Assembly: GCA_964016885.1 (NCBI GenBank)
Contig: OZ024740.1
Location: 147,808,001-147,872,000 of the forward strand
Source: Eledone cirrhosa
Lineage: Eukaryota
Length of the DNA: 64,000 nt
Direction of reading: 5' to 3'
The notes beneath the pieces were generated by a model. The model ran no database searches and was not told the DNA's origin. It saw only the letters and a list, made by a program, of their open reading frames with translations. This document shows, piece after piece, positions 25,971 through 32,744 of the stretch. The position numbers and the translations under genes were made by a program. Numbering within the stretch: position 1 is the stretch's first letter; each line of letters starts with the position of its first letter.

Positions 25971-26060
25971 TCCTCTTGATAAGTCGGCAGACCTCGCAAG
26001 GACTCTATATCTTTATGATATATTGTTTTTGTTTATGCCACGAAACTACGTAGTCGAGGA
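25971..26060 (+). ncRNA. Type I hammerhead ribozyme, U3-A8 core variant (unit 1)
   Basis: TCCTC-TTGATAA-GTCGGCA...TGCCAC-GAAA-CTACGTAG-TC-GAGGA; predicted GUC cleavage after 26055. Confidence 0.78.
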
Positions 26061-26565
26061 ATTTAGGAGCAGTTTAGGTATGATACATTTTATTACTAAT
26101 TATATCTAAATGTTTCTTCTCTCTTCATAATGTATTTTTAACTCTGATACTGGTTCAGTCTAGTTCAACTGAATTGGTCTGTCCCAGTCATTCATTGAGC
26201 AACATCGGTGAAGTTGGCACCCTTAACTCACAGTTGGGTGCGGATGCATTCATGTATATATGTGTGTGTCCGCATGTATCTGTGTGTTTCTAAATATATT
26301 GTTAATAACTCCCTCTGGTCGAGCAATCTTTGAAGTGTGGGGACAGCTGGAAAGCTTCCATTACTCATACTTCTCGCCTTCTTCACCACCTCTTCTACGG
26401 CCTCGATATAAATACCCCCTCCGCCTCCGTGGTATTTTCTTCGGGGTTATAAGAGGCTTAGCTCTGTTTCTCGACCGTTATATCGCGTGACTATCTCCCC
26501 CTCCGCCTTTTGGGATTCTTTCTCACGTCGTGTAGACGCGTTCTTGAGACTAGTAAAATGAGGTA

Positions 26566-26655
26566 TCCTCTTGATAAGTCGGCAGACCTCGCAAGGACTC
26601 TATATCTTTATGATATATTGTTTTTGTTTATGCCACGAAACTACGTAGTCGAGGA
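26566..26655 (+). ncRNA. Type I hammerhead ribozyme, U3-A8 variant (unit 2)
   Basis: Identical to 25971-26060. Confidence 0.78.
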
Positions 26656-27160
26656 ATTTAGGAGCAGTTTAGGTATGATACATTTTATTACTAATTATAT
26701 CTAAATGTTTCTTCTCTCTTCATAATGTATTTTTAACTCTGATACTGGTTCAGTCTAGTTCAACTGAATTGGTCTGTCCCAGTCATTCATTGAGCAACAT
26801 CGGTGAAGTTGGCACCCTTAACTCACAGTTGGGTGCGGATGCATTCATGTATATATGTGTGTGTCCGCATGTATCTGTGTGTTTCTAAATATATTGTTAA
26901 TAACTCCCTCTGGTCGAGCAATCTTTGAAGTGTGGGGACAGCTGGAAAGCTTCCATTACTCATACTTCTCGCCTTCTTCACCACCTCTTCTACGGCCTCG
27001 ATATAAATACCCCCTCCGCCTCCGTGGTATTTTCTTCGGGGTTATAAGAGGCTTAGCTCTGTTTCTCGACCGTTATATCGCGTGACTATCTCCCCCTCCG
27101 CCTTTTGGGATTCTTTCTCACGTCGTGTAGACGCGTTCTTGAGACTAGTAAAATGAGGTA

Positions 27161-27250
27161 TCCTCTTGATAAGTCGGCAGACCTCGCAAGGACTCTATAT
27201 CTTTATGATATATTGTTTTTGTTTATGCCACGAAACTACGTAGTCGAGGA
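27161..27250 (+). ncRNA. Type I hammerhead ribozyme, U3-A8 variant (unit 3)
   Basis: Identical to 25971-26060. Confidence 0.78.
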
Positions 27251-27645
27251 ATTTAGGAGCAGTTTAGGTATGATACATTTTATTACTAATTATATCTAAA
27301 TGTTTCTTCTCTCTTCATAATGTATTTTTAACTCTGATACTGGTTCAGTCTAGTTCAACTGAATTGGTCTGTCCCAGTCATTCATTGAGCAACATCGGTG
27401 AAGTTGGCACCCTTAACTCACAGTTGGGTGCGGATGCATTCATGTATATATGTGTGTGTCCGCATGTATCTGTGTGTTTCTAAATATATTATATATATAT
27501 ATATATATATATATATATATATATATATATATATATATATATATATATACATATATATATATATATATATATATATATATATATATATATATATATATAT
27601 ATATATACATACAAACATATACATATATATATACTAATTTTACTG

Positions 27646-29248: not shown

Positions 29249-29249
29249 T

Positions 29250-32200
29250 ATATAGTATTGGCATAAGACCAAGGTGTGTGTGAGTGTCCAGATTGTACGT
29301 ACTGCAAGGGGAATCCATTAGGCCTTGCCGTATTGGAATACTTGTGTACAAATATGTATGTGCCCATCAGTGTGCAATGCATGTGTGCGTATATGTATGT
29401 GTGTGTGTCGGCACGTTTATATCTATAGACATCAAAAGGTATGCAAATTTGTGTATATTTGTGTTGCACCATAGAACATGTGTGTTTACATATGTCATTG
29501 TGTTTATATGTGGATAGAGATGTATGTAGGATGTATGCTGATGTGGGTATGTATGTTGATGTGTGTATGTTGTGGGTTGGTCTTAGGGAGAAGTGTTTAG
29601 ACGGGGTCCGTATTTGTTAATAAAGTGAGATTCCTTGCTGATGCGCTGGGTGTGGGTGGCATTATCTTTAAATTTGTAGAGGGGAAAGATTCTGAAGTTG
29701 GGATGATTTTGGGCGGCACAGGTATCAATGTGTTCACTCAGTGGTATTTTCCTGTATTCCCGTATTTTAATTTGGGATCTATGGACAGTCATGCGTTGGC
29801 AGAGGCTGTTTTTGGTCTGGCCTATGTATTGTTCTCGACAACCTGAGCAAGTTGATATTAGATTAGATTATATATTAGATTAGATTATATATTAGATTTT
29901 CTGATGCGCATGTGAAATTGTGTTTTACTATAAAACGTTGTCCTTCTTTGAAATAGAATTCCAAACCCTCTATTAGGTTGATGCATATGCCACAGTTGGG
30001 TCTATCGCATTTTTTTACTGTGGGTTTCGTTGTTGTGGTTGGCAGTACTTTGGCATGTGTTAGGATGTTTTTCATTGACTTAGATTGTCTTTTGCTCTTT
30101 ATGGTATCGTTTGTTCGTAGGATTTGGTTCATTCTATGGTCCTTTTTTAACACAGGGATGTTCTGGAGGATGGTGTCAAAGGCCTCGTTGTTGAGGGGGT
30201 TGTGTGTGGAGATGTATGGAAGAGCTTTTAGTTTCGGTTGATTTACTTTAGGGTGTCTAAGGTCCTGAGTACTGAGTTTTAGGGCACGTTGGATTCCATT
30301 GTCAATTAGTGATGCATGGTAGTCCCTGCCTATGAGTGTGTCCTTTAGTTCTTGTAGCCGTAAGTAACATGTGTTTTATTGGAGACTATAGTACAGATTC
30401 TCTAGGCTAAGTTGTAGGGAATATTAATTTTAACGTGTCTAAGCTGGCAAGAGTTGAAAGGAAGATATTGCTTGGAGTCTGTGGGCTTGTAGTATATGTC
30501 TGTTTCTATTTTTTTGTTATGAATCTTAATGAGGATGTCGAGGAAGGGGAGTTGTTGATGGCTGTATTCCATCGTGAAGTTAATATTCGTGTTGAGCCCA
30601 TTTATAAGGGTGTGAAATTCTTTAAGTTTCTCGATGTTTTCGTGCCAAAGGATGAAGCAGTCATCTAGATATCGCTTCCAGTTCCTTTCTATATGTAAGT
30701 GGAGAGTGTTTCCAAATTTGTTTAGTACTTTAGTGTAGAGGGTGATTTCCAGGTATCCCATGACTAGGTTGGCATAAGTGGGGGCTGTTTTCGTTCCTAT
30801 AGCGGTCCCAGATTTCTGCCTGTCGGGTTTGTTATTGAAAACGAAGTAATTGTTCTCCAAGATAAATTTGAGTCCCTCTATCACGAATTCTTTTTTGATG
30901 CGTTGTGGGAGTTCATTGTGTTAATTATCCAGCCAGAATTGGATAGCTTCTATTCCTAGGTTGTGGGGGATGTTGGAGTATAGGTTGACTACATCGAACG
31001 TCACTAGTAGGGTTTGTTCAGAAAGGGGCATATTAGGGAGGTGATTGAGCATATCTAGGTCGTCCCTTATATAGCTTTTGATGTGTTTGCGAAGGGTATC
31101 AATGAAGTTGCTAAGGCGGTGGGTTTCGCAAGCGGGGCCTGCTATTATAGGTCTTAATTTGAGATCATTGGGTGAGGGGACATTGATGACTATGTCTGTG
31201 GTTTCCTTGCATGCCTTACTTATTAATTCGCTTTTATGTACTTTAGGGATACCGTAGAAAAGGCTGGATTTACTTGTGAAGTCTGTGATGAAGCTGAATT
31301 CCTTGTTAGTGAGTCCTTCTTTGTATTGGTTGATCAGAGTTTTTAGGTTTCTCATAATTTTCTGTTGATTGTAGTGTTCAGCCTTTTCGTAGTATGTTTC
31401 GTTTTCCAAAGTGGGGAGCGCTAAGTTGATATAGAATTCTCTCTCCATTAGGACTACTGTACTCCCTTTATCAGCCTCTTTAATTGTAATGGTTCTGTCG
31501 GTTTTTAATCTATTTAATCCTTCCCATTCTTTCTTGTTGAGGTTTGGCTTGTGTTTTTGTCTGTGCAAATGTTGGTAAGGGAAGTTTGTGATGTGTTCAC
31601 AGAATTCGTCCAGGATTTTATTTCTACCTTTTGATGGGGTGTAATTGCTTCTATTTCTGGCTAATGATTCATCCTCATTGTACTGGTCGAATAGTTCTTC
31701 ACTGAGTCGTAACTTTCTACAGAAGTCTGTGATATCTTCCTTCATTTCATAGTAGTTAGGACGTAGTGAGGTCGGTGTAAATTTAAGACCTTTGGAGAGT
31801 AAGTTGATAAGGTTGGGTGTTGGTTCTGCACTAGTTAGATTGATAATTTTTATTACTCTCGGCTTCTCCTCCCTGTCTTGTGTTATTTTGTTTGCCTGTA
31901 TCTGTGTGCTGTGTCTAAAAAATGGTTGGGGTAGAGGGGTTGTCTGCTGATGTTAAGTGGTCTCCTGTGTTTGTTATATTCCTTGTTGTTGTAAAATGTG
32001 GTTCGGGTTCGTGGTTGTAGATTGAATGGGGTGTTCCTGTATTGCGAGTATGGATGTGTGTTTCTATGTGCCATGTTGTATTGTGGTGTTATAAGTGGCC
32101 TACGTTGTTGGTTGTATCGTGTGGTGTGGGTTTGTTGTGTATTGTGGAAGCGAGAGTTGAGAAAATGGAAATTACCTTGCTGTCCCCTTGAAGCGGGGAA

Positions 32201-32552
32201 GTTGTTAATCTATCATGGTGGTGGTATCTTTTCCCTATGTTTGACGATGAGGCATCCGAGTAGTAGTTGAGTGATTTCGTATGGTGTCTCCTTGAAGGGG
32301 GAAAGTTGTAAATGTCATTCTGGGGGAGATGATTTCTAGGGTTTTTGTTCCTTCTTATGATAGCGAGGTTGGGAAGTTCATCTTCGGTGTGGTGCTTCCT
32401 TCTTCTTTTGTTAGTGGCTGGAGGGTTTGCGAAGTTGTTGTGCGGTTCCGTTATGGGTTTTCCTATTTTTATGAACGGGTTATTGGAGGTGTAATCCGTT
32501 TGAAAAGTCGATTCATAGTGTAGGAACCAAGCGGCACTTTTTTCCCAGCGTT
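29250..32552 (-). mobile_element. Penelope-like retroelement (Neptune/Naiad-type), near full length, disrupted ORF
   Basis: LSKGLKFTPT, ITIKEADKGSTVV, FYGIPKVHK, LRPIIAGP, TFDVVNLYSNIPH, GTAIGTKTAPTYANL, WKRYLDDCF, LPFLDI, YYKPTD, CDRPNCGIC...FTCASENLIY...YIGQT (GIY-YIG). Confidence 0.95.
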
Positions 32553-32708
32553 ATATATATATATGTATATATTAGAAAGTGAGGTTTTTTTACAAAATGA
32601 AAAATAACCGGTGTCCTACACGAGTGAAAGTATAAGGAAAAAAGATGAAATCGAAAATGCAACTGGTTTTTCTGTGAGAAAATCCACAGACCCTCCATCT
32701 CAACTCTA

Positions 32709-32744
32709 CTTTTGAAAAGCAGAAGAACTGCGAAACCGGTAAAG
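32709..32744 (+). ncRNA. Minimal type I hammerhead ribozyme, U3-A8 variant, in a module with 36-bp inverted repeats (32631-32666 / 32784-32819)
   Basis: CTT-TTGAAAA-GCAG-AAGAA-CTGC-GAAA-CCGG-TA-AAG. Confidence 0.7.

Follow-up and report, generated by a model that had tools for sequence, protein, structure and literature searches.

Type I hammerhead motifs with a U3-A8 core in probable Penelope-like retroelements and likely retrozymes of Eledone cirrhosa

The window described here is a stretch of 64,000 nucleotides from Eledone cirrhosa (assembly GCA_964016885.1, contig OZ024740.1, here C1, positions 147,808,001 to 147,872,000 of the forward strand). It belongs to an AT-rich, microsatellite-dense genome of 3.0 Gb and carries several repeat families, A to E, with hammerhead ribozyme motifs in which UUGANAA often stands where CUGANGA is expected. 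The motifs are probably type I hammerheads with a U3-A8 pair, borne by Penelope-like retroelements (families C, D and E) and by likely retrozymes that are moved by them (families A and B); self-cleavage is predicted for A and B, and little or none for D and part of E. The hammerheads are real, and the U3-A8 core variant itself has already been known since 2011-2014; of modest interest are only the amplified mismatch cores.

For a type I hammerhead core we required a pair between positions 3 and 8, U4 G5 A6 N7 A9, G12 A13 A14, A15.1-U16.1 and H17 (core consensus in PMC7151607), closed by three helices of which stem I is open. Copy numbers in the genome are matches to exact patterns and thus lower bounds, and controls with reversed patterns gave 0. 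The patterns behind the main counts of A, B, D and E held A8 fixed and left positions 3 and 9 free, and position 8 was freed in separate patterns for families A, C and E. Structural descriptors were applied to the window and to a genome sample of 119 evenly spaced 10-kb pieces (1.19 Mb). Descriptors with a stem III of at most 30 nt or a palindromic stem III do not catch family B, whereas the full descriptor does.

Families A and B are represented in the window by the following features.

25511..27483, plus strand: family A array, about 3.3 head-to-tail units of 595 bp, non-coding, exact 595-bp period, (TA)n tracts on both sides, non-LTR (long terminal repeat)-retrozyme-like
25971..26060, plus strand: type I hammerhead A1 with U3-A8 core, 46-nt loop II and palindromic stem III, predicted cut after C26055
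26566..26655, plus strand: hammerhead A2, identical to A1, repeat at +595
27161..27250, plus strand: hammerhead A3, identical to A1, repeat at +1190
27646..27821, plus strand: type I hammerhead B with U3-A8 core at 27654-60 and long stem II insert, predicted cut after C27813, in one partial copy of a unit of about 555 bp

In A1, stem I is formed by 25971-75 and 26056-60, the core UUGAUAA occupies 25976-82, GAAA lies at 26042-45 and the GUC site has its C17 at 26055. Stems I, II and III measure 5, 6 and 5 bp, stem II with a bulged C, and stem I carries a GUA bulge which we take to resemble a tertiary-contact motif of Schistosoma. Units at other loci are 591-597 bp long. The genome holds at least 6,068 matches, with U3 in 100 of the 100 among the matches listed; 14 matches have another base at position 8, eight of them U3-G8 and none C3-G8. 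Among 63 copies there are 21 distinct loop-II sequences and a single 3' half common to 55, and on a diverged contig with 12 differences all 11 of those listed lie in loop II. Family A (window 25760-26340) also occurs in runs X4 and X6, labelled organisms B and C, where the listed differences leave the hammerhead core unaltered. The hammerhead fold of A lies 1.1 kcal/mol above the minimum-energy fold. A contig joint that 'goes back', as circular A RNA would give, is accounted for equally well by tandem DNA. Beside the array, a LINE (long interspersed nuclear element)-type element with AP-endonuclease and reverse transcriptase (RT) frames extends over 21930-25514 on the minus strand, its 5' side cut by the microsatellite that borders the A array.

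The hammerhead of family B combines an 8-bp stem I (27646-53 with 27814-21), a 3-bp stem II and a 27-bp stem III within 27746-27812; GAAA lies at 27743-46, and the GUC site (27811-13, C17 at 27813) follows 67 nt after it. Tandem copies have a period of 555-556 bp, and all of the at least 94 genome matches have U3. The hammerhead fold is 2.7 kcal/mol above the minimum-energy fold, with a folding z of -3.7. In an alignment of 16 copies chosen from 30 loci, 97.5% of the stem cells are paired; one change is two-sided, and seven pair types are extra. That the strands of B might be in scrambled order was weighed by eye and then dropped. In both A and B the units are without a long coding frame and contain a type I hammerhead in every tandem unit, as in non-coding, non-autonomous non-LTR retrozymes; near five A and B loci (3-kb loci) the only RT or endonuclease (EN) matches are scattered and of 31-54% identity.

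The heptamer UUGANAA alone is frequent, with 97 occurrences on both strands of the window, and it is the full fold that exceeds chance, as the first-pass annotation had proposed. The full descriptor matched four U3-A8 and two C3-G8 hammerheads in the window, where 50 shuffles gave on average 0.02 and 0; family C, with its 3-bp stem I, is absent from these matches. The 62 matches in the 1.19-Mb sample comprise 44 with C3-G8, 15 with U3-A8, one with C3-A8, none with U3-G8 and two others, the shuffled means being 0.0 for C3-G8, 0.5 for U3-A8 and 0.2 each for C3-A8 and U3-G8. The 15 U3-A8 matches belong to families A (8), C (4) and E (3). An enrichment of U3-A8 over single-mutant cores, likewise anticipated, is thus present in the descriptor counts, at a ratio nearer 15:4 once copies missed by the descriptor are included. 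In targeted Rfam scans none of A, B and C matched any hammerhead family at a threshold of E<=10, and in a whole-window Rfam scan, which gave mostly microsatellite matches, hammerhead is not among the 150 listed of 313 rows. About a quarter of the sample matches (15/62) being U3-A8 and A, B and C being missed by Rfam, counts from a CUGANGA-only descriptor are too low.

Families C and D are linked to coding elements, one of which lies in the window.

32709..32744, plus strand: family C minimal hammerhead with U3-A8 core at 32712-18, 4-bp stem II, GAAA, palindromic stem III and GUA site, predicted cut after A32741
18793..18829, minus strand: family D copy with U3-A8 and A13C
20562..20597, plus strand: family D copy with U3-A8, A13C and 2-bp stem I
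28477..28512, minus strand: family D hammerhead-like motif with U3-A8, A13C and 3-bp A-U stem I, within the 3' terminal repeat of the element listed next
28330..32550, minus strand: decayed Penelope-like element, approximate bounds, with RT, CX4CX2C linker and C-terminal GIY-YIG nuclease

The C copy is an insertion of its own with an inverted part (about 32552-32857) beside the D-type element. Its three helices are only marginal, with 3 bp in stem I of the window copy and, among 43 distinct copies, 17 of the 3-bp and 17 of the 4-bp form, the latter being a sister subfamily. With positions 3, 8 and 13 free the genome has at least 11,125 matches, and U3-A8-A13 is found in 99 of 100 among the matches listed. 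An intact type I core with U3-A8 is common to A, B and C, whose coordinates, stems, GAAA and cleavage sites are as the first-pass annotation had them. The same annotation had also given GAAA to the 18793/20562/28477 family, our family D; here the U3-A8 core stands, while the required GAAA reads GCAA (A13C) in 3/3 window copies and in 98/100 of the matches listed genome-wide. Changes of A13 are strongly deleterious in hammerheads. D, with at least 6,252 genome matches, U3 in 98 of the 100 listed and a stem I of 2-3 A-U pairs, consequently lacks the type I core.

The window element gives an RVT_1 match at E=7.5e-4, below the cut-off, and its linker of the CX2-5CxxC form precedes a C-terminal GIY-YIG domain, so that by this motif it appears Neptune/Nematis-like (clade motif definition in PMC8557442). 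The hammerhead motif lies on the sense strand of a repeat flanking an RT plus GIY-YIG frame for D at loci L213, L217 and L221 and in the window, for C at L017 and L021, and for E at L249. In general, C, D and E adjoin RT frames or lie downstream of GIY-YIG domains at a distance of about 1 kb. The regions downstream of nuclease matches that are more distant were scanned as well and gave no attributable hammerhead. Copies of A, C, D and E occur genome-wide very often as minus/plus pairs 0.1-5 kb apart, as in Penelope-like inverted insertions. A GIY-YIG fragment with a CX4CX2C linker at window 4070-4648 on the minus strand is likely the 3' end of another Penelope-like element, and a long inverted repeat (4868-5009) lies beyond it.

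Family E emerged from the genome sample; two copies of it, both decayed, lie in the window.

20895..20993, minus strand: family E hammerhead whose core at 20983-89 has the C3·A8 mismatch, outside the list of the first-pass annotation
about 21535-21630, plus strand: family E decayed copy

At locus L249 another Penelope-like element has the E motif in the interval between its GIY-YIG domain and the RT frame that comes next. The genome holds at least 4,211 E matches with A8, of which 1,342 are without U3; 98 of 100 listed among the latter are C3·A8, which means that a single-mismatch core has been amplified. Another base at position 8 is found in only 31 matches (five C3-G8, 11 U3-G8). With positions 3, 7 and 8 free there are at least 5,645 matches, and the first 100 listed show all four bases at position 7, A8 in 100/100 and C3 in 18 (manual count). 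In a C3·A8 relative of E at L170, changes in stem I and in stem III are compensatory. In a tree of 38 long E copies, calculated with positions 3 and 8 removed, three changes between U3 and C3 are needed, the root being arbitrary; another E tree included these two positions, and an E tree of 89 rows was distorted by non-homologous flanks.

The modules had been described as unrelated, and for C and D this does not hold. The two are 78-82% identical and align over 167 columns (z=29), so that D is not independent of C, and the Penelope-like proteins which they flank are related as well (46-49% identity). Between A, B, C/D and E no homology was detected at the level of units (alignment z at most 2.2). 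A and the E relative L170 have the letters of stem I, stem II and the cleavage site in common, as judged by eye, without a statistic. Judged from these sequences, U3-A8 may have originated between one and four times among the families. Since C/D are one lineage and A and E have hammerhead sequence in common, the argument from recurrence is weakened.

For A and B a likely cycle can be outlined. A tandem A or B array would be transcribed, and the units would be cut after GUC. A would probably react as a dimer, joined through the palindromic stem III, whereas the 27-bp stem III would let B react as a monomer. Unit-length RNA would thereby be freed and probably circularised, and a Penelope RT/GIY-YIG protein, whose part in moving A and B we infer, would copy it into (TA)n. 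The U-A swap would have been fixed in the founders of the families and inherited by their thousands of descendants. Copying of the coding elements would probably not depend on cleavage, leaving the A13C and C3·A8 lineages free to amplify.

Several observations weigh against this reading of U3-A8 hammerheads as elements of Penelope-like retroelements and their retrozymes. The fold energy of A is no better than that of shuffles (z=-0.2), and the covariation of B is not above its shuffle control, 39/500 shuffles being equally high; moreover, the column with the two-sided change in B is unpaired in 5/16 copies. The copies are young, so their conservation is partly shared descent. Two D copies and three E copies with C3·A8 (L146, L150, L170) escaped the descriptor, for which reason a 15:1 ratio of U3-A8 to single mutants is overstated. 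The fixed U3-A8 core lies far above chance, but the claim that the double change argues for maintained activity is undercut by the amplification of A13C in D and of C3·A8 in about one third of the E copies; U3-A8 alone is thus no proof of it.

On these last families could also be built the view, which we regard as unlikely, that all U3-A8 motifs are inactive relics, whose founders lost activity and drifted under AT bias to UUGANAA while the elements spread anyway. D (at least 6,252 copies) and non-U3 E with A8 (at least 1,342) did amplify with non-consensus cores, the genome is AT-rich, a low U3-A8 activity is implied by PMC9901934, where a type III hammerhead was rescued by the G-C swap only, and hammerhead mutants still insert in vitro without cleavage, in a system where cleavage is reported to need protein and to be abolished by single changes at position 3 or 8 (PMC11167929). 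Against it, A and B retain their three stems and the remaining core bases, variation is concentrated in loop II and N7, and U3-G8, with 8 copies in A and 11 in E, forms no family. Also unlikely is the opposite case, in which activity persists in the A13C core of D and in the C3·A8 cores of E (about 1,300 copies), through rescue by the protein of the element or by peripheral structure. If the cores were active, the Penelope hammerhead would tolerate core changes lethal to free hammerheads, and U3-A8, C3·A8 and A13C would form a natural series in which to ask if cleavage matters for retrotransposition.

That each module acquired the double change independently and represents a distinct, undescribed ribozyme lineage, as first proposed, is very unlikely. 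The units of A, B, C/D and E are indeed without detectable homology, and A, B and C escape Rfam; yet the variant is in print (PMC3088659, PMC4209133), which refutes the claim of an overlooked lineage, the topology is plain type I, and the homology of C with D and the letters shared by A and the E relative leave perhaps one to four origins. Chance matches in AT-rich DNA are hardly credible as a general explanation and are refuted for A, B and E: the frequency of the heptamer and the stem I of only 2-4 bp in C and D could suggest them, but the shuffled expectations are negligible, the motifs are placed in terminal repeats of Penelope-like elements, and B has helices of 8 and 27 bp.

Perreault et al. 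(2011, PMC3088659) noted several natural cases of covariation from C3-G8 to U3-A8 and describe the variant as active in vitro; their survey discarded repeats with core mutations and would have filtered out lineages such as D and C3·A8 E. Cervera and De la Pena (2014, PMC4209133) reported about 1,300 U3-A8 motifs in Cercyon Penelope-like elements of Schistosoma, using a dedicated descriptor, and that minimal motifs cut weakly and in dimeric form. The families described here resemble Cercyon of Schistosoma mansoni in their type I topology, U3-A8, palindromic 15.2-16.2 and position in terminal repeats, C and D being the closest fit, and in their single or inverted copies across the genome; a CUGANGA descriptor is blind to both. 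Unlike Cercyon, copy numbers are higher here, the stems of C and D are shorter (stem II 2-4 bp, stem I 2-4 bp), D adds A13C and E has a C3·A8 subfamily. In the open-licence literature no amplified C3·A8 or A13C families were found by searches that were not aimed at them, and such variants may be present in the alignments that supplement PMC4209133.

Animal retrozymes have been defined and tied to Penelope-like elements (PMC7229834, bioRxiv 10.64898/2026.07.22.740005). A and B are like the metazoan non-LTR retrozymes of PMC7229834 in their non-coding tandem units, each with one type I hammerhead, and in coexisting with Penelope-like elements. At 555-597 bp their units are longer than the 170-400 nt given in that paper and fall within the 51-972 bp of bioRxiv 10.64898/2026.07.22.740005; unlike the retrozymes described there, they have a U3-A8 core, long loop-II inserts and, in B, a 27-bp stem III. 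The role of the ribozyme in Penelope-like elements has been called unclear (PMC8557442) and is also at issue in PMC11167929; with intact cores next to mismatched and A13C ones, these young families supply natural constructs for addressing it. Family B, with its 27-bp stem III, offers an easy monomeric system for U3-A8 activity.

Three further repeat families contribute canonical C3-G8 type I hammerheads to the window, at 15373(+), 15248(-), 15745(+) and 16095(-), those at 15373(+) and 15248(-) forming an inverted pair. Elsewhere in the genome, L141 and L146 (G000:C3:190.0 Mb and 280.0 Mb) are arrays of a unit of about 310 bp with a canonical C3-G8 hammerhead in each, the array at L141 giving 11 tandem hammerhead matches. 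A further family of about 466 bp occurs in L128, L131 and L141.

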